A stretch of DNA of 27,454 bases, taken from the IMG/VR virus record IMGVR_UViG_2531839332_000012, one strand, 5' to 3'. Shown piece after piece: positions 6,468 through 27,454 of this stretch. This DNA comes from a virus. Lineage: Duplodnaviria; Heunggongvirae; Uroviricota; Caudoviricetes. The position numbers and the translations under genes are program-made. Positions within the stretch are counted from its first letter, which is position 1. Every line of letters starts with the position of its first letter. The notes under the pieces are model-generated. The model saw nothing but the letters and a program-made list of their open reading frames with translations, searched no databases and was not told the origin of the DNA.

Positions 6468-7563
6468 ACGGCTGCGTGATGAATCAATTGCTCATGCAGT
6501 CTGGATATCCCGCTATAGCACTGGTGTGGCTGCCAGAATGGGGAAAATACTGAATGACAGCGATGCGGAGCTTACAGCTCGCCTGCTGGTAGCACTGGAC
6601 AGCCTCGATCCTGGTAGTTTTACCGTTACGCGCCTGGAGTCACTTCTGGCGAGTGTCAGAGAGGTTAACCGCGCTGCTATTAACAGCATGTTTACCAGTC
6701 TCTCCGGAGAGCTGAACGAGCTGGCAATTTATGAGGCTGGTTATCAGTTAAGTCTGTTTGATTCTCTGCTACCTGATTTTGTTGCTGATGTTCACCCTCT
6801 GGTTGGTATATCTTCTGATGCACTTTACGCCGCTGCAATGGCGCGACCATTCCAGGGACGACTGCTCAGTGAGTGGGCCTTGGATCTTGAGGCGGATCGG
6901 CTCAGACGCATAACAAATACGGTGCGTCAGGGTTTTTTGCTGGGGGATACCAATGAGCAGATCGCAAGAAAAATTCGGGGACATGTCAGCAAGGGATTTC
7001 AGGATGGTGCATTGCAGATGAGCCGGGCTAATGCGGCCAGCATTGCAAAAACAGCGGTTGGACATCTTGCTGCTACTGCCCGTGAGAGTTTTGCCAGCGC
7101 GAATAATGATTTGATTAAGGGTAAGCAATGGTTATCAACGCTTGATAATCGTACTACGCCACAATGTCGAATCAGGGATCGCCTCAAATATACGCTGGAT
7201 AATAAACCTGTAGGTCACAGTGTGCCTTATTTGCATGGGCCGGGAAAAATTCATTTCTGCTGCCGCTCAACGGAAACGTTCATTCTGAAATCAGCGAAGG
7301 AACTGGGTATTGATGTTCGTGATATTTCCCCGGCTGAGCGGGCCAGCATGGATGGCGTGGTGGCCGGAGATACAACCTACAGGGAATGGTTTTTGCGTCA
7401 GCCTTACACCAGACAAAAACAGATTGTGGGGGAAACCCGGGCAAAGCTGATTCGGGATGGCGGTATGTCGCCAGATGAATTTTACACCGATAAAGGCGAA
7501 TGGCTGACGCTGAAGCAACTCCGTGAGCGTGATGCACAGGTATTCAGAAAAGCAGGGATTTAA
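6448..7563 (+). CDS. Head morphogenesis / minor head protein (SPP1 gp7 / Mu F-like)
   Basis: 371-aa ORF overlapping the portal stop. Position and size fit minor head protein families. The start is ATG 6448 or 6451. Confidence 0.7.
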   Translation: MMQTVNERLRDESIAHAVWISRYSTGVAARMGKILNDSDAELTARLLVALDSLDPGSFTVTRLESLLASVREVNRAAINSMFTSLSGELNELAIYEAGYQLSLFDSLLPDFVADVHPLVGISSDALYAAAMARPFQGRLLSEWALDLEADRLRRITNTVRQGFLLGDTNEQIARKIRGHVSKGFQDGALQMSRANAASIAKTAVGHLAATARESFASANNDLIKGKQWLSTLDNRTTPQCRIRDRLKYTLDNKPVGHSVPYLHGPGKIHFCCRSTETFILKSAKELGIDVRDISPAERASMDGVVAGDTTYREWFLRQPYTRQKQIVGETRAKLIRDGGMSPDEFYTDKGEWLTLKQLRERDAQVFRKAGI

Positions 7564-16978: not shown

Positions 16979-17652
16979 TGCAGGACATACAACAGGAAAC
17001 GCTGAATGAATGCATTCGTGCGGAGCAGTCGGCCAGCGTGGTGCTCTGGGAAATCGACCTGACCGAGGTAGGCGGGGATCGCTACTTTTTCTGTAATGAG
17101 CAGAACGAAAAAGGTGAGTCTGTCACCTGGCAGAGTCGGCAGTATCAGGCCTATCCCATTCAGGGGAGTGGATTTGAGATGAACGGCAAGGGCAGTGCTG
17201 CCCGTCCGACACTGACGGTCTCTAACCTGCACGGCATGATCACCGGGATGGCGGAAGATCTGCAGAGTCTGGTCGGCGGAACGGTGGTCCGGCGTAAGGT
17301 TTACGCCCGTTTCTGGATGCGGTGAACTTCGTCAACGGAAACAGAGCCGATCCGGAGCAGGAGGTGATAGCCGCTGGCGCATGAGCAGTGCAGCGAACTG
17401 AGCGCGGTAGTGCCTCTTTGTACTGTCCACGCCGACGAAACGGATGGGCGTTTTTCCGGGCGATCATGCTGGCAAACCTGCACCTGGACCTATCGCGGGA
17501 GAGTGCGGTTATACGGTCCGGCGTCGCGGATGAATATGACCAGCCACGTCCGATATCACGAAGGATAAATGCAGCAAATGCCTGAGGGTGTAAGTTCGCA
17601 ATAAGTCGGCAACTTTGGCGGCTTCCTTTCCATTAACAAACTTTCGCAGTAA
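16978..17652 (+). pseudogene. L: Minor tail protein L (lambda gpL homologue), frameshifted in this sequence
   Basis: The N-terminus [33 protein letters not shown] is lambda L-like, but the frame stops at 17325 after ...VYARFWMR. The homologous sequence continues in another frame (AVNFVNGN...), implying a 1-nt loss in ttctggatgcgg at ~17311, with further shifts downstream. Confidence 0.75.
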
Positions 17653-17657
17653 ATCCC

Positions 17658-18285
17658 ATGACACAGACAGAATCAGCGATTCTGGCGCACGCCCGGCGAT
17701 GTGCGCCAGCGGAGTCGTGCGGCTTCGTGGTAAGCACGCCGGAGGGGGAAAGATATTTTCCCTGCGTGAATATCTCCGGTGAGCCGGAGGCGTATTTCCG
17801 TATGTCGCCGGAAGACTGGCTGAGGCAGAAATGCAGGGTGAGATTGTGGCGCTGGTCCACAGCCACCCCGGTGGTCTGCCCTGGCTGAGTGAGGCCGACC
17901 GGCGGCTGCAGGTGCAGAGTGATTTGCCGTGGTGGCTGGTCTGCCGGGGGACGATTCATAAATTCCGCTGTGTGCCGCATCTCACCGGGCGGCGCTTTGA
18001 GCACGGGGTGACGGACTGTTACACGCTGTTCCGGGATGCTTACCATCTGGCGGGGATTGAGATGCCGGATTTTCATCGCGGGGATGACTGGTGGCGTAAC
18101 GGTCAGAATCTCTATCTGGATAATCTGGAGGCCACAGGGCTGTATCAGGTGCCGTTGTCAGCGGCGCAGCCGGGCGATGTGCTGCTGTGCTGTTTTGGTT
18201 CATCGGTGCCGAATCATGCCGCATTTACTGGGGACGCGAGCTGCTGCACCATATTCCTGAACAACTGAGCAAACGAGAGAGGTAA
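17658..18285 (+). pseudogene. K: Tail assembly protein K (lambda gpK homologue), frameshifted in this sequence
   Basis: Split between ORF 17658..17888 (MTQTESAILAHARRCAPAESCGFVV...) and ORF 17831..18268 (MQGEIVALVHSHPGGLPWLSEADRR..., with HxH and Cys motifs of the K family), with another shift near the 3' end. Confidence 0.75.
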
Positions 18286-18292
18286 CCGACAA

Positions 18293-18907
18293 ATGGCAGC
18301 GACGCACACACTCCCTCTGGCGTCACCGGGCATGGCCGCATCTGCCTTTACGGGGATTTACAACGATTTGGCGCCGCATCGACCTTCGGTGAAAACGGGG
18401 CGAAGCCATCCGGGCGCTGGCCACAGTCCCGGCTTTCGTCAGAAACTGAGACGGCTGGTACAGGTCGCATTGCCGGGCGTGATGCAGGTGAAACCGAATT
18501 TCTGCCCGTCTTAATGAGCCGCTGGAAATGGTGCCGTGATCCATATCGTGCCGCGTCTGGGGCAAAAGTGGCGGTGTGTTTCAGGTGTGCTGGGGGCGGC
18601 GTTATTGCGGTGGCATGGTGGAACCCTGTGGGCTGGCTGGGTGCCGCGGCTGTATCGGCATGTTCGGGCCAGTATGATCTGGCGGTGTGGCGCAGATGCT
18701 GGCACCGAAAGCCAGGACGTCCACGGCAGCCAGTACAGATAACGGCAAACAGAACACCTATTTTTCCTCACTGGATAACATGGTTGCCCAGGGCAATGTT
18801 CTGCCTGTTCTGTACGGTGAAATGCGCGTGGGGTCCGCGTGGTTTCTCAGGAGATCAGCACGGCAGACGAAGGGGACGGTGGTCAGGTTGTGGTGATTGG
18901 TCGCTGA
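18293..18907 (+). pseudogene. I: Tail assembly protein I (lambda gpI homologue), multiply frameshifted in this sequence
   Basis: Starts MAATHTLPLASPGM, then homologous segments appear in different frames (IHIVPR..., IAVAWWNPVGWLGAAAVS..., AQMLAPKAR...TDNGKQNTYFSSLDNMVAQGNVLPVLYGEMRVGS, ending QVVVIGR). Confidence 0.7.
18604..18713 (+). repeat. Copy A of a ~120-bp duplicated gene I segment (deletion-bearing copy)
   Basis: The first 55 nt are identical to 27335-27389. The remainder matches 27390-27454 apart from about 10 missing nucleotides at several positions. Confidence 0.7.
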
Positions 18908-18967
18908 TGCAAAATGTTTTATGTGAAACCGCCTCCGGGCGGTTTTGTCGTTTATGGAGCATGACGA

Positions 18968-21900
18968 ATGGGTAAAGGCAGCAGTAAGGGGCATACCCCG
19001 CGCGAAGCGAAGGACAACCTGAAGTCCACGCAGCTGCTGAGTGTGATCGATGCCATCAGCGAAGGGCCGGTTGAAGGTCCGGTGGATGGATTAAAAAGCG
19101 TGCTGCTGAACAGTACGCCGGTGCTGGACAGTGAGGGGAATACCAACATCTCCGGTGTCACGGTGGTGTTCCGGGCCGGTGAGCAGGAGCAGACACCGCC
19201 GGAGGGATTTGAATCCTCCGGTCCGAGACGGTGCTGGGTACGGAAGTGAAATACGACACGCCGATCACCGGACCATCACGTCGCAAACATCGACCGTCTG
19301 CGCTTTACCTTCGGTGTGCAGGCACTGGTGGAAACCACCTCAAAGGGGGACCGGAATCCGTCGGAAGTCCGCCTGCTGGTTCAGATACAGCGTAATGGTG
19401 GCTGGGTGACGGAAAAAGACATCACCATTAAGGCAAAACCACCTCGCAGTATCTGGCTCGGTGGTGGTGGGTAACCTGCCGCCGCGCCCGTTCAATATCC
19501 GGATGCGCAGGATGACGCCGGACAGCACCACAGACCAGCTGCAGAACAAAACGCTCTGGTCGTCATACACCGAAATCATCGATGTGAAACAGTGCTACCC
19601 GAACACGGCACTGGTCGGCGTCAGGTGGATTCGGAGCAGTTCGGCAGCCAGCAGGTGAGCCGTAATTATCATCTGCGCGGGCGTATTCTGCAGGTGCCGT
19701 CGAACTATAACCCGCAGACTCGGCAATACAGCGGTATCTGGGACGGAACGTTTAAGCCAGCATACAGCAAAACATGGCCTGGTGTTGTGGGATATGCTGA
19801 CCCATCCCGCTACGGCATGGGGAAACGTCTTGGTGCGCGGATGTGAAAATGGGCGCTGTATGTCATCGGCCAGTACTGCGACCAGTCGTGCCGGACGGCT
19901 TTGGCGGCACGGAGCCGCGCATCACCTGTAATGCGTACCTGACCACACAGCGCAAGGCGTGGGATGTGCTCAGTGATTTCTGCTCGGCGATGCGCTGTAT
20001 GCCGGTATGGAACGGGCAGACGCTGAGTTCGTGCAGGACCGACCTCGATAAGGTGTGGACCTATAACCGCAGTAATGTGGTGATGCCGGATGATGGGCGC
20101 CGTTCCGCTACAGCTTCAGCGCCCTGAAGGACCGCCATAATGCCGTTGAGGTGAACTGGATTGACCCGAAAACGGCTGGGAGACGGCGACAGAGCTTGTG
20201 AGAACCAGGCCATTGCCCGTTACGGTCGTAACGTCACGAAGATGGATGCTTTGGCTGTACCAGCCGGGGGCAGGCCACCGCGCCGGGCTGTGGCTGATTA
20301 AAACGAACTGCTGGAACGCAGACCGTGGACTTCAGCGTGGGTGCGAAGGGCTTCGCCATGTACCGGGGATGTCATTGAAATCTGCGATGATGACTATGCC
20401 GGTATCAGCACCGGGGCGCGTGCTGGCGGTGAACAGCCAGACCCGGACGCTGACGCTCGACCGTGAAATCACGCTGCCATCTCCGGACCACGCTGATAAG
20501 CCTGGTTGACGGAAGTGGAATCCGGTCAGCGTGGAGGTCAGTCCGTCACCGACGGCGTGAAGGTAAAGTGAGCCGGTTCCTGACGGCGTTGCCGATACAG
20601 CGTGTGGGGGCTGAAGCTGCCGACGCTGCGCCAGCGCCTGTTCCGCTGGTGAGTATCCGTGAGAACGAGACGGACGTATGCCATCACGCGTGCAGCATGT
20701 ACCGAAAAGAAGCCATCGTGGATAACGGGGCGCACTTTGACGGACCGAGCGGCACGGTGAATGGGTCACGCCGCCGCGTGCAGCACTGACGCCGAAGTCA
20801 CCGCAGACAGCGGGGAATACAGGTGCTGGCGCTGGGACACGCCGAAGGTGGTGAAGGGGTGAGCTTTGCTTCGCCTGACCGTGGCAGCGGAGAGGCAGTG
20901 AGCGGCTGGTCAGACGGCCGGACGACGGAAACCACTACCGCTTCACGCACTGGCCGGGAACTACAGGCTGACGTCCGGGCGGTAAATGCGTGGGGCAGCA
21001 GGGCGACCGGCATCGGTATCGTTCCGGATTGCCGCACCGGCAGCGCCGTCGCGGATTGAGCTGACGCCGGGCTATTTTCAGATAACCGCCACGCCGCATC
21101 TTGCGGTTTATGATCCGACGGTACAGTTTGAGTTCTGGTTCTCGGAAAAGCGGATTGCGGATATCAGGCAGGTTGAAACCACAGCCCGCTATCTTGGTAC
21201 GGCGCTGTACTGGATAGCCGCCAGTATCAATATCAAACCGGGCCATGATTATTATTTTTACGTTCGCAGTGTGAACACCGTTGGCAAATCGGCATTCGTG
21301 GAGGCTGTCGGTCAGCCGAGTGATGATGCATCAGGCTATCTGGATTTTTTCAAAGGCGAGATAGGGAAAACCCATCTGGCTCAGGAGCTGTGGACGCAGA
21401 TTGATAACGGTCAGCTTGCGCCTGACCTGGCTGAAATCAGGACGTCCATTACGGATGTCAGCAATGAAATCACACAGACCGTCAATAAGAAACTGGAAGA
21501 CCAGAGTGCAGCGATCCAGCAGATACAGAAGGTTCAGGTTGATACAAATAATAACCTGAACAGCATGTGGGCTGTGAAGCTGCAGCAGATGCAGGACGGA
21601 CGCCTTTATATTGCGGGTATCGGTGCCGGTATTGAGAACACCCCTGACGGCATGCAGAGTCAGGTGCTGCTGGCGGCAGACAGGATTGCGATGATTAATC
21701 CTGCGAATGGCAACACAAAGCCGATGTTTGTTGGTCAGGGCGATCAGATATTCATGAATGAAGTGTTCCTGAAACGCCTGACGGCTCCCACCATTACCAG
21801 CGGCGGTAATCCTCCGGCATTTTCCCTGACACCGGACGGACAGCTGACGGCGAAAAATGCCGATATCAGTGGCAGTGTGAATGCGAACTCCGGGACGCTC

Positions 21901-22377
21901 AACAACGTCACGATTAACGAGAACTGTCGGGTTCTGGGAAAACTGTCCGCCAACCAGATTGAAGGCGATCTCGTTAAAACAGTGGGCAAAGCTTTCCCCC
22001 GGGACTCCCGTGCACCGGAACGGTGGCCATCAGGGACCATCACCGTCAGGGTTTATGACGATCAGCCGTTTGACCGGCAGATTGTTATTCCGGCGGTGGC
22101 ATTCAGCGGCGCTAAACATGAGAGGGAGAATAACGATATTTATTCGTCATGCCGCCTGATAGTACGGAAAAACGGTGCTGAAATTTATAACCGTACCGCG
22201 CTGGATAATACGCTGATTTACAGTGGCGTTATTGATATGCCTGCCGGTCGCGGCCACATGACGCTGGAGTTTTCGGTGTCATCATGGCTGGTAAATAACT
22301 GGTATCCCACAGCAAGTATCAGCGATTTGCTGGTTGTGGTGATGAAGAAAGCCACCGCAGGCATCAGTATCAGCTGA
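18968..22377 (+). pseudogene. J: Tail tip / host specificity protein J (lambda gpJ homologue); N-terminal ~2 kb multiply frameshifted, C-terminal 463 codons intact
   Basis: Starts MGKGSSKGHTPREAKDNLKSTQLLSVIDAISEGP. The first 2 kb is then fragmented into at least 8 ORFs across frames (18968, 19131, 19461, 19592, 19843, 20198, 20463, 20823), before one continuous frame 20986..22377. Confidence 0.8.
20986..22377 (+). CDS. J: Intact C-terminal ORF of J (receptor-recognition region); probably part of full-length J rather than a separate gene
   Basis: 463 codons without interruption, starting at ...[46 protein letters not shown]. This is the largest ORF an automated annotator would call here. Confidence 0.45.
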
Positions 22378-22395
22378 ATTTTATAACCCATATAC

Positions 22396-22423
22396 GGGCG
22401 CCAGAAATGGCGCCTTTTTTATT
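22396..22423 (+). terminator. Intrinsic terminator after J
   Basis: ggcgcc-agaaat-ggcgcc hairpin followed by TTTTTTATT, starting ~20 nt after the J stop. Confidence 0.55.
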
Positions 22424-22444
22424 GCAGAAAAGCGAGAGGTAATT

Positions 22445-22999
22445 ATGCGTAAAGTTTGTGCAGCCATTTTGTCCGCAGCCATTTGTCTGGCCGTATCCGG
22501 TGCGCCTGATGGGCGTCTGACACAGCCACCTGAGCGCGGGTATCTTCATGCCCGACGAACGCCCGGCAGGATATCTGAACGGGATTAACGTGAAATACCG
22601 TTATGAGTTTACGGACCCTGGGGTGTACGTCTTCAGTATGCAGAGATCAACCGTACAGCGATACCCGCTGGCATGAAGATTCCGTCGTAACCGCTGGTTC
22701 AGCGTATGGCGGGGCCGTCTGTCGCGTGAATGAATGGTTCAGCGCGTATGCGATGGGGGTGCTTACAGCCGTGTGTCGACTTTCTCCGGGGATTATCTCG
22801 CGTAACTGACAACAAGGGGAAAAGCACGATGTGCTGACCGGAAGTGATGACGGTCGCCACAGCAACAGTCTCTGGCGTGGGGGGCTGGCGTGCAGTTTAA
22901 CCCGACCGAATCCGTGGCCATTGATGTCGCTTATGAAGGCTCCGGCAGTGGGACTGGCGCACTGACGGTTTCATCGTGGGTGTCGGTTATAAATTCTGA
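22445..22999 (+). pseudogene. lom: Lom/Ail-family outer membrane protein gene, frameshifted in this sequence
   Basis: ATG 22445 with SD GAGAGG encodes a signal-peptide-like start MRKVCAAILSAAICLAVSG. Lom-like segments then appear in several frames (GINVKYRYEF, VNEWFSAYAMGVLTAV, AYEGSGSG, GFIVGVGYKF stop). Confidence 0.7.
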
Positions 23000-23025
23000 T
23001 TAGCCAGGTAACACAGTGTTATGAC

Positions 23026-23053
23026 AGCCCGCCGGTTCAGGCGGGCTTTTTTG
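23026..23053 (+). terminator. Intrinsic terminator after lom
   Basis: agcccgcc-ggttca-ggcgggct forms an 8-bp GC-rich stem followed by TTTTTTG. Confidence 0.6.
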
Positions 23054-23063
23054 TGGGGTGAAT

Positions 23064-26000
23064 ATGGCAGTAAAGATTTCAGGTGTACTGAAAGACGGCA
23101 CAGGAAAACCGGTACAGAACTGCACAATCCAGCTGAAAGCAAAACGTAACAGCACCACGGTGGTGGTGAACACGCTGGCCTCAGAAAATCCGGATGAAGC
23201 CGGGCGTTACAGCATGGACGTTGAGTACGGGCAGTACAGCGTTATTCTGTTGGTGGAGGGATTCCCGCCGTCACATGCCGGGACCATCACCGTGTATGAA
23301 GATTCCCGACCCGGTACGCTGAATGATTTTCTCGGTGCCATGACGGAGGATGATGCCCGTCCTGAGGCACTGCGCCGTTTTGAACTGATGGTGGAAGAGG
23401 TGGCGCGTAACGCGTCCGCGGTGGCACAGAACACGGCAGCCGCGAAGAAGTCAGCCAGCGATGCCGCACATCGCCCGTGAGGCGGCAACCCATGCGACTG
23501 ATGCTGCAGGCTCAGCACGCGCAGCCAGCACGTCAGCCGGACAGGCCGCTCGTCGGCTCAGTCAGCATCTTCCAGCGCAGGAACGGCATCAACAAAGGCC
23601 AGTGAAGCATCGAAAAGTGCTGCTGCTGCAGAGTCCTCAAAAAGCGCGGCAGCTACCAGTGCCGGTGCGGCGAAAACGTCAGAAACGAATGCGGCAGCGT
23701 CACAACAATCAGCAGCCACTTCTGCATCCGCCGCGACCACGAAGGCGTCAGAAGCAGCCACCTCAGCCCGGGATGCGGCGGCCTCAAAAGAGGCAGCGAA
23801 ATCATCAGAAACGAACGCATCATCAAGCGCCAGTAGTGCCGCTTCCTCGGCAACGGCGGCAGGCAATTCCGCGAAGGCGGCAAAGACGTCTGAGACAAAC
23901 GCCAGGTCTTCTGAAACGGCAGCGGGACAGAGTGCCTCAGCTGCGGCAGGCTCAAAAACAGCGGCTGCGTCGTCTGCCAGTGCCGCGTCAACAAGTGCCG
24001 GGCAGGCCTCAGCCAGTGCCACCGCCGCCGGAAAATCGGCAGAAAGCGCCGCATCGTCTGCTTCAACAGCCACAACGAAGGCTGGCGAAGCCACTGAACA
24101 GGCCAGCGCAGCAGCAAGGTCTGCTTCCGCAGCGAAGACATCCGAGACGAACGCGAAAGCGTCGGAAACCAGCGCAGAATCCTCAAAAACGGCTGCCGCA
24201 TCGTCCGCCAGTTCGGCGGCGTCATCGGCATCATCGGCGTCTGCTTCAAAAGATGAGGCGACCAGACAAGCGTCCGCAGCGAAGGGCAGCGCCACGACGG
24301 CATCCACGAAGGCGACAGAGGCAGCTGGCAGTGCGACGGCGGCAGCTCAGAGCAAAAGTACGGCGGAATCCGCGGCAACGCGCGCTGAGACAGCGGCAAA
24401 ACGGGCAGAGGATATTGCATCCGCCGTGGCGCTTGAGGATGCGAGCACGACGAAAAAGGGGATAGTACAGCTCAGCAGTGCGACCAATAGCACTTCCGAG
24501 TCACTGGCGGCAACGCCAAAAGCCGTTAAGGCCGCGTATGACCTGGCTAACGGGAAATACACCGCACAGGATGCAACGACAGCACAGAAAGGGATAATCC
24601 AGCTAAGCAGCGCGACCAACAGCACGTCTGAAACGCTGGCGGCAACGCCAAAGGCAGTAAAATCAGCCTATGACAATGCAGAGAAACGTCTGCAGAAAGA
24701 CCAGAACGGCGCTGATATACCCGATAAGGGACGCTTCCTGAACAACATTAACGCGGTCAGTAAAACAGACTTTGCTGATAAGCGTGGTATGCGTTATGTG
24801 CGGGTTAACGCTCCTGCAGGTGCAACATCTGGAAAATATTACCCTGTTGTTGTTATGCGTTCTGCTGGCTCAGTAAGCGAACTGGCATCAAGGGTCATTA
24901 TCACCACGGCAACGCGAACCGCAGGCGATCCGATGAATAACTGCGAGTTTAACGGATTTGTTATGCCTGGTGGCTGGACTGACAGGGGGCGTTATGCTTA
25001 TGGAATGTTCTGGCAATATCAAAACAATGAACGAGCCATCCACTCAATAATGATGAGTAATAAGGGCGATGATTTGCGCTCTGTGTTCTATGTTGATGGC
25101 GCTGCTTTCCCTGTTTTTGCGTTTATCGAAGATGGCCTGTCAATATCCGCACCTGGTGCTGATCTCGTTGTTAATGATACGACCTATAAGTTTGGGGCAA
25201 CAAATCCAGCGACTGAATGTATCGCGGCGGACGTTATCCTTGATTTTAAGAGTGGGCGTGGTTTTTATGAGTCTCATTCGTTAATCGTTAACGATAACTT
25301 GTCGTGCAAAAAACTTTTTGCCACAGACGAAATTGTAGCGCGTGGTGGTAATCAGATTCGAATGATAGGTGGGGAGTATGGGGCATTATGGCGTAATGAT
25401 GGCGCTAAAACTTACCTGCTGCTTACCAATCAAGGTGATGTTTATGGTGGCTGGAATACATTAAGACCGTTTGCTATTGATAACGCAACCGGCGAACTGG
25501 TTATTGGAACCAAACTGTCCGCAAGTCTGAACGGTAATGCATTAACAGCAACAAAGCTGCAAACGCCAAGACGGGTTTCTGGTGTTGAGTTTGATGGTTC
25601 AAAAGATATTACTTTAACCGCCGCGCATGTGGCTGCTTTTGCCAGAAGGGCAACGGATACATATGCCGATGCGGATGGTGGCGTTCCCTGGAATGCCGAA
25701 TCAGGCGCTTATAATGTCACCCGCTCTGGCGACAGCTATATTCTGGTTAACTTCTATACCGGAGTCGGAAGTTGCCGGACCTTGCAGATGAAGGCGCATT
25801 ACAGAAATGGTGGTCTGTTCTACCGTTCTTCAAGAGACGGTTATGGTTTTGAGGAAGACTGGGCAGAAGTTTATACCTCGAAAAATCTTCCACCAGAAAG
25901 CTACCCAGTCGGCGCACCAATCCCGTGGCCATCAGATACCGTTCCGTCTGGTTATGCCCTGATGCAGGGGCAGACTTTTGACAAATCTGCTTACCCGAAA

Positions 26001-26588
26001 CTTGCAGCCGCTTATCCGTCAGGCGTGATCCCTGATATGCGTGGCTGGACGATTAAGGGCAACCGCCAGTGGTCGGCCGTATTGTCTCAGGAACAGGACG
26101 GCATTAAATCGCACACCCACAGCGCCAGCGTATCCAGTACGGATTTGGGTACGAAAACCACATCATCGTTTGATTACGGCACTAAATCCACGAATAACAC
26201 TGGTGCGCATACTCATAGTTTAAGTGGCAGCACGAATGCAGCTGGTAATCACAGCCATAGAGATGGCCGTCGATTTAACCCCAGTGTTTTTAAAGATACT
26301 TATCAATATGGTTATACAAGCTCAGGTCAAAATACCTGGGGTGTACAAGGCTCAGTAGGTATATCTACGGGGTGGTTAGCGAATACCAGTACAGATGGTA
26401 ATCATAGCCATTCACTGTCCGGCACAGCAGCATCTGCAGGTGCACACGCGCATACTGTCGGTATTGGTGCTCATACGCACTCCGTTGCGATTGGTTCACA
26501 TGGACACACCATCACCGTTAACGCTGCTGGTAATGCGGAAAACACCGTCAAAAACATCGCATTTAACTATATTGTGAGGCTTGCATAA
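23064..26588 (+). pseudogene. stf: Side tail fibre protein (lambda Stf family); reading frame interrupted near 23468 and 23550, otherwise continuous
   Basis: The N-terminus MAVKISGVLKDGTGKPVQNCTIQLKAKRNSTTVVVNT is in frame 0 to a stop at 23478-23480. Homology continues in frame +1 ([18 protein letters not shown]) and returns to frame 0 from ~23550. That frame then runs without a stop through the Ala/Ser/Thr-rich shaft and the C-terminal domain (...[22 protein letters not shown]) to 26588. Confidence 0.85.
24426..26588 (+). CDS. stf: C-terminal ORF of the side tail fibre as it appears in the ORF track (distal shaft and tip with HxH repeats); part of stf
   Basis: 720-aa ORF from the first start codon. 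The same frame is actually open from 23502, because Ala/Ser/Thr codons supply no start codon. It contains repeated HxH motifs. Confidence 0.45.
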
Positions 26589-27163
26589 TGGCATTCAGAA
26601 TGAGTGAACAACCACGGACCATAAAAATTTATAATCTGCTGGCCGGAACTAATGAATTTATTGGTGAAGGTGACGCATATATTCCGCCTCATACAGGTCT
26701 GCCAGCAAACAGTACCGATATTGCACCGCCAGATATTCCGGCAGGCTTCGTGGCTGTTTTCAACAGTGATGAGGCATCGTGGCATCTCGTTGAAGATCAT
26801 CGGGGAAAAACCGTCTATGACGTGGCTTCCGGCGACGCGTTATTTATTTCTGAACTCGGTCCGTTACCGGAAAATGTTACCTGGTTATCGCCGGGAGGGG
26901 AATATCAGAAGTGGAACGGCACAGCCTGGGTGAAGGATACGGAAGCAGAAAAACTGTTCCGGATCCGGGAGGCGGAAGAAACAAAAAACAACCTGATGCA
27001 GGTAGCCAGTGAGCATATTGCGCCGCTTCAGGATGCTGCAGATCTGGAAATTGCAACGGAGGAAGAAATCTCGTTGCTGGAAGCATGGAAAAAGTATCGG
27101 GTATTGCTGAACCGTGTTGATACGTCAACTGCACAGGATATTGAATGGCCAGCACTGCCGTAG
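26588..27163 (+). CDS. tfa: Tail fibre assembly protein (lambda Tfa family)
   Basis: ATG overlaps the stf stop (TAATG). The 191-aa product [54 protein letters not shown]... matches the Tfa chaperone family, at the canonical position after stf. Confidence 0.9.
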
Positions 27164-27325
27164 GGTAAAACATATAAATTCTATAATTAGCAAAATCGAT
27201 TTTGTGAAAAATGGCTTTAACTCGGTTTGTTTTTCGAGTTCCGGGCGGACTCAAGGAAGAAGAATAGTGTTGCGTGTTATTTTAACCAGATTTCAAGTTG
27301 TTTGGTCGTGGAAAAGTGGAGCAAA

Positions 27326-27454
27326 ATGTTGTTGATTGCGGTGGCATGGTGGAACCCTGTGGGCTGGCTGGGTGCCGCGGCTGTATCGGGCATGTATGCG
27401 GCAGGGGCCAGTATGATCCTGGGCGGTGGGGCGCAGATGCTGGCACCGAAAGCC
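27326..27454 (+). CDS. Start of an ORF running off the window end, homologous to the hydrophobic C-terminal part of tail assembly protein I
   Basis: ATG 27326 is preceded by GTGGAG. It reads MLLIAVAWWNPVGWLGAAAVSGMYAAGASMILGGGAQMLAPKA in frame to the last base of the window. The DNA from 27335 is near-identical to 18604-18713 inside the I pseudogene. Confidence 0.35.
   Translation, partial: MLLIAVAWWNPVGWLGAAAVSGMYAAGASMILGGGAQMLAPKA
27335..27454 (+). repeat. Copy B of the duplicated gene I segment (in-frame copy, truncated by the window end)
   Basis: Direct comparison with 18604-18713. This copy keeps the reading frame (...GASMILGGGAQMLAPKA). Confidence 0.7.

Follow-up and report, generated by a model that had tools for sequence, protein, structure and literature searches.

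The window closes with 124 nt of ordinary sequence from the lambdoid tail tip gene I, located at a breakpoint, and the open reading frame (ORF) that runs into them very probably has no function of its own. Here, the window is the whole stretch of DNA that was analysed, 27,454 bp in length. That the ORF would lack a function is suggested by its anatomy, on a contig that ends before any downstream gene. As for the breakpoint, about half of our expectation goes to a private complex rearrangement and most of the rest to a chimeric join, with little left for anything else.

The contig and its features

The window is the entire draft contig AQAA01000221.1 (GCA_000356765.2) of E. coli P0302293.10. 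The P0302293-series isolates belong to an ETEC project in which 100-bp Illumina HiSeq reads were assembled with Celera Assembler (PMC5469772), a method that is documented for the project and for other isolates of the series and not explicitly for isolate.10. Judged from its sequence, the contig is a common Rac-site lambdoid prophage that extends from trkG to tfaR. At least 80% of the first 25 kb is covered in 680 complete E. coli genomes, and the first 17 kb show six mismatches and no indels to strain T43. Relative to a related Rac-type prophage locus (L007), positions 1–27190 align to 5001–32367 and positions 27191–27333 to 33166–33308. The features discussed below are the following.

17300–23550, + strand: L-K-I-J-lom-stf stretch, read as a collapsed-paralogue consensus, with about 185–188 deleted bases
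18600–18713, + strand: internal copy of the gene I segment, with consensus gaps
26588–27163, + strand: intact tfaR-type tail fibre assembly gene, from the ORF list (Pfam Caudo_TAP)
27190–27191, no strand: junction A, where 798 bp present in related Rac-type prophages, pinR and its flanks among them, are deleted
27191–27335, no strand: 145-bp fragment of the pin-ydfK spacer, which opens with the perfect 14-bp palindrome CAAAATCGATTTTG
27308–27454, + strand: partial ORF, ENE26316.1 'hypothetical protein, partial', with an alternative start ATG at 27326
27331–27335, no strand: junction B, a 5-bp microhomology, GTTGA, common to the spacer and gene I
27331–27454, + strand: lambdoid tail tip gene I fragment, codons about 111–153, which reaches the contig end
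27429, + strand: private T-to-G change (V to G), 25 nt before the contig end

Position 1 of the window, equivalent to L007 position 5001, lies inside trkG, the Rac-borne potassium transporter gene, and both contig ends are therefore within prophage sequence. The terminal ORF stops at the end of the contig, 124 nt into gene I, and not at an arbitrary window edge. A circular replicon with a terminal overlap was considered and rejected, as the end matches an internal position and not the start of the contig, inside trkG. Two further observations concern the side tail fibre gene. Positions 24436–24542 and 24568–24674 form a 107-nt direct repeat (76% identity, 132 nt apart), which resembles the internal repeats that fibre shaft motifs usually form. 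At 26062–26075, stf has three 1-base gaps in 14 nt relative to strain PSJ-36, with a net change that is in-frame; these gaps could be a true allele difference or further consensus error.

A second copy of part of gene I

A repeat search matched 18604–18658 to 27335–27389 at 100% identity and 18681–18713 to 27422–27454 at 97%, and this duplication of a gene I segment is far beyond chance. A preliminary description of this DNA had reported such a terminal duplication, in the frame of I and without the deletions of the internal copy, and alignment bears this out: in the pairwise alignment, the terminal copy has none of the 1-, 7- and 2-base gaps of the internal copy. The extent of the duplicated stretch was given as 27335–27454, but homology to the intact I gene begins a little earlier, at 27331. 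The description also placed a gpI-like segment outside the lambda gene order, and there is indeed a clean I copy behind tfa.

The 124 nt from 27331 to 27454 are 99.2% identical to 'tail assembly protein' genes of ETEC and other E. coli. The best matches listed, of 10,801 matching places, all have this identity, i.e., a single mismatch. At position 27429, both the internal copy and the intact I allele have T. The difference at this position is probably a low-coverage base error, and such a private mismatch suggests very thin read support at the contig end. At least two L006-like alleles are mixed in the internal copy (L006 being an ETEC prophage allele), the I gene of close relatives is a third, divergent allele, and allele type does not assign the terminal copy to a particular prophage.

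The internal copy as a collapsed-repeat consensus

The internal copy had been described as an I pseudogene. This reading has to be given up, as the deletions lie on sites that vary between paralogues, and the frameshifts are a consensus artefact that arose when reads of paralogous tail modules were merged. Compared with close relatives, the region from 17.3 to 23.6 kb has about 185–188 deleted versus 10 inserted bases, and where L, K, I, J, lom and the beginning of stf would be, the deletions leave dozens of short ORFs. In two 500-bp bins (17000 and 19500), 8–16 bases are deleted and there are no mismatches; other bins have 19–45 deleted bases and only two mismatches. We compared the deletions with the sites that vary between L006 and L004, a Rac-type prophage allele. 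Fifty-nine of the 137 deletions fall exactly on L004/L006-variable sites, versus a background of 5.1% (8-fold; binomial p = 4e-39), and at the remaining variable sites the consensus switches between both alleles. Because the deletions sit on paralogue-variable sites, the stretch is a collapsed consensus and not the product of gene decay. True pseudogene decay was rejected for this reason and because there are almost no substitutions where deletions are dense. Homopolymer error of the 454 type was also rejected as the source of the frameshifts, as deletions are not enriched in homopolymers (123 of the 188 deleted bases are in runs of length 1).

The same deletion-only errors occur in H-L-K-I at positions 7028–10499 of contig AQBU01000050.1 (L008), a second assembly of the same ETEC project, from E. 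coli p0305293.11 of a similarly named isolate series. Relative to L006, this contig has 59 deleted versus 2 inserted bases over 3.5 kb, and it ends just after I. The deletion artefact thus looks pipeline-wide. The genome of P0302293.10 holds more than one I-type sequence, in several lambdoid tail modules that were merged by the assembler. The earlier proposal that another I paralogue exists in this genome survives insofar as I-type sequences number more than one, but the reason is a different one, namely collapsed tail modules and not a decayed I.

Two junctions in the last 264 nt

Both junctions fall within the last 264 nt of the contig, 145 bp apart. The region upstream of junction A (26900–27190) is 100% identical to annotated tfaR/tfaQ in many E. 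coli genomes. All relatives that were inspected have the order tfaR, pinR (on the opposite strand), unannotated spacer, ydfK. Junction A shows no microhomology (0 bp), and a three-way alignment with the Rac and Qin loci agrees with this. Beyond it, 27191–27335 is 98.6–100% identical to the unannotated pinR/pinQ-ydfK spacer among the E. coli genomes listed. The two sides of junction A occur together nowhere in 5,426 complete E. coli genomes, and an exact-match search of IMG/VR, JGI metagenomes and GTDB representatives returned none.

The right edge of the pin deletion coincides exactly with the palindrome CAAAATCGATTTTG at 27191–27204, which relatives carry about 137 bp upstream of the pinR start. 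It could serve as an operator or in recombination. A site-specific rearrangement by a Pin/Din serine invertase would have its crossover inside paired 26-bp recombination sites. By eye, it is the edge of the palindrome and not its centre that adjoins junction A, junction B is within the I coding sequence, and the pin gene is absent. An IS-mediated junction was ruled out, as there is no IS sequence at junction A or B.

The anatomy of junction B was derived from a four-way alignment of the contig end, the intact I gene, the internal copy and the Rac spacer. With a slash for the break, the spacer reads ...ATGTTGTTGA/AGTGG and gene I reads ...GGCGGCGTTGA/TTGCGG, and the two are fused over the GTTGA at 27331–27335. 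Position 27335 is thereby joined head-to-tail to the equivalent of position 18600, on the same strand and 8.73 kb upstream. The two sides of junction B are found together at no place in the 5,426 complete E. coli genomes, and no exact match was returned from IMG/VR, GTDB representatives or JGI metagenomes. One locus with I, J and tfa close together was considered, but its order differs (I, J remnant, tfa remnant) and it is unrelated to junction B.

The partial ORF and its product

The ATG at 27326, preceded by GTGGAG, is present as described before, with GGAG 4 nt ahead of the ATG. It sits 162 nt past the end of tfa (27163), close to the earlier figure of about 165 nt. The translation of this frame is MLLIAVAWWNPVGWLGAAAVSGMYAAGASMILGGGAQMLAPKA. 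The frame reads MLLIAVAWWNPVGW...APKA and, from LIAVAWW on, it equals residues 111–153 of the intact 215-aa I protein with one V-to-G change. A Pfam search of the ORF at the contig end gave no match. In the intact I protein, Pfam Lambda_tail_I (PF06805) is found at residues 14–97 only, and the ORF has no match because it begins at residue 111. The N-terminus formed by the fusion (VEKWSK/MLLIAVAWW) occurs in no full-length protein of a 5.8-billion-cluster protein collection, by exact-cluster and homology search, and the homology search with this N-terminus returned only frameshifted I fragments of other assemblies. Clustered with the 49-aa partial protein at 90% is a 415-aa sequence without resemblance to gpI, which looks like spurious clustering.

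The signals at the start of the ORF come from the spacer fragment, which provides GTG 27308, GGAG and ATG 27326. The start codon and the SD-like GGAG of the spacer are unchanged in thousands of genomes. Because these signals belong to the spacer itself, the in-frame fusion with I that makes up the ORF is a matter of chance. Upstream of the ORF, no sigma-70-like promoter was detected on the + strand. Helices H1 and H2 of lambda gpI, to which the encoded peptide corresponds, are located within the cone of the tail tip and have been predicted to span the membrane (PMC11101478). The hydrophobicity of the peptide is therefore a normal gpI property and no sign of a new membrane protein.

Origin of the breakpoint

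The explanation that we favour is as follows. The genome contains several near-identical copies of gene I, which would be why the contig stops there. A 798-bp deletion of pinR is followed by the 145-bp spacer remnant and then, via GTTGA, by the middle of I. The ATG and GGAG of the spacer fall in frame with I by chance, and the product would be only the C-terminal half of gpI, from H1/H2 onward, without the N-terminal Lambda_tail_I domain.

This anatomy may have arisen in the genome or in the data. The preliminary description had suggested a recombination junction, and this is one of two live explanations, although the junctions are found in no other genome searched. It had also noted that the location would be an artefact if the segment had been misjoined by assembly. 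Such a misjoin gains considerably in likelihood now that the segment proves to be the end of a contig that Celera assembled from 100-bp reads. A false overlap at the junctions was nevertheless rejected as its form: the shared sequence of just 0 and 5 bp cannot make a 40-bp overlap, and both junctions must therefore exist in reads. This speaks for a real rearrangement, to which we give an even chance, in which pinR was lost and the spacer became joined head-to-tail to the middle of I, in one complex event or in two. The partner would be the same prophage, through an 8.7-kb tandem duplication of I'-J-lom-stf-tfa, or a same-orientation lambdoid prophage, through an inter-prophage deletion or fusion, and the truncated I' would be a non-functional remnant. 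A microhomology like the 5 bp at junction B is a typical trace of illegitimate or template-switch recombination. The sequence joined to the spacer is no random locus but a phage tail gene in direct orientation, and at least two I-type modules in the genome are possible partners. Two novel junctions 145 bp apart also fit a single event with templated filler. However, the junctions are private to AQAA01000221.1 among the collections searched, no called protein from other assemblies spans junction B, and both junctions are confined to the final 264 nt of a contig that shows gross consensus artefacts. The private mismatch at 27429 also points to very thin read support.

The position at the contig end speaks for the alternative that the last 264 nt derive from chimeric fragments, formed by PCR template switching or ligation, which extended the contig where the true path entered repeats, and we regard this as a serious possibility that falls short of an even chance. 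The true genome would then have the ordinary order tfaR-pinR-ydfK, with pin, spacer and ydfK being multi-copy prophage sequences. An origin in the data is consistent with the 100-bp reads and the overlap assembler, with the artefactual deletions on this contig (about 185–188) and the same pattern in AQBU01000050.1, with the private base error near the contig end, with the uniqueness of the junctions among all collections searched and with the ordinary gene order in all close relatives inspected. However, it needs two independent, consecutive chimeric junctions, and a chimera fits two junctions 145 bp apart poorly because 100-bp reads cannot span both. Past junction A, moreover, normal spacer reads of high coverage would be expected to carry the assembly into ydfK. 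A hit on a tail gene in the same orientation would also be rare for a random chimera, an argument that is weakened since the finding was selected for that coincidence.

The preliminary description further raised a stand-alone, membrane-associated gene derived from gpI. In its strongest form, a functional, N-terminally truncated gpI with H1/H2, plug and C-terminal strands would be expressed from the spacer ATG and GGAG, which we consider highly improbable. Equally far-fetched is the role that it might be given, in the membrane or as a decoy by which lambdoid tail tips are poisoned or blocked. The frame is open and in frame with I, GGAG precedes the ATG by 4 nt, and the part encoded here covers the helices predicted to be transmembrane and, further on, would cover the tail-tip plug domain (PMC11101478). 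Yet the start signals belong to the spacer in its unaltered form, as it occurs in thousands of genomes that have no such gene, no promoter-like site was seen upstream, and no homologous truncated protein was found in the 5.8-billion-cluster collection. The junction is known from a single contig, with the end of the ORF beyond it, and the hydrophobicity is that of normal H1/H2. A breakpoint scar in gene I, whether real or chimeric, is thus the reading that we retain.

Implications

Nothing in these data supports a novel order of phage genes. Under either surviving reading, the terminal segment is part of a well-known gene at a breakpoint and carries little biological weight. If junction B is real, it is only one more private rearrangement between lambdoid tail modules. 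An expressed stand-alone gpI, if true, would mean that the prophage had turned a structural gene into an interference factor. The frameshifts that seem to inactivate L, K, I, J, lom and stf are an artefact, which makes frameshift-based claims of prophage decay in such assemblies untrustworthy. Similarly, where an unusual gene order falls close to the end of a draft contig, within a few hundred bases, it calls for read-level confirmation.

Comparison with known systems

The terminal segment (27331–27454) corresponds to the Gly/Ala-rich hydrophobic H1/H2 region of lambda gpI (PF06805), residues 111–153. It differs from gpI in that residues 1–110 are missing, including the whole Pfam domain (14–97), and in its place after tfa and not between K (C40 peptidase) and J; the canonical K-I-J order is seen in relatives. 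In addition, the terminal copy is preceded by spacer-derived start signals, and its 3' part lies outside the contig. The DNA to its left resembles the right end of Rac and Qin (tfaR/tfaQ-pinR/pinQ-spacer-ydfK/ynaE), with which it shares tfa, a 27-nt 3' flank and the 145-bp spacer at 98.6–100% identity. Unlike these prophages, it lacks 798 bp with the pin invertase gene, and the spacer is cut after 145 bp with no ydfK next to it.

The contig also resembles short-read drafts with collapsed repeats. It stops about one read length into a multi-copy gene, and its indels are almost all deletions and are confined to tail genes common to lambdoid prophages. A contig that terminates in a repeat normally enters the repeat from its true genomic neighbour, whereas here the neighbour, a scrap of spacer after the pin deletion, is itself unprecedented. 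An extra breakpoint, real or chimeric, is therefore involved. The contig end finally resembles the junctions of tandem duplications and template switches in its junction sequence: 27335 is joined head-to-tail to 18600 over a 5-bp microhomology, with a short templated insertion from nearby DNA.
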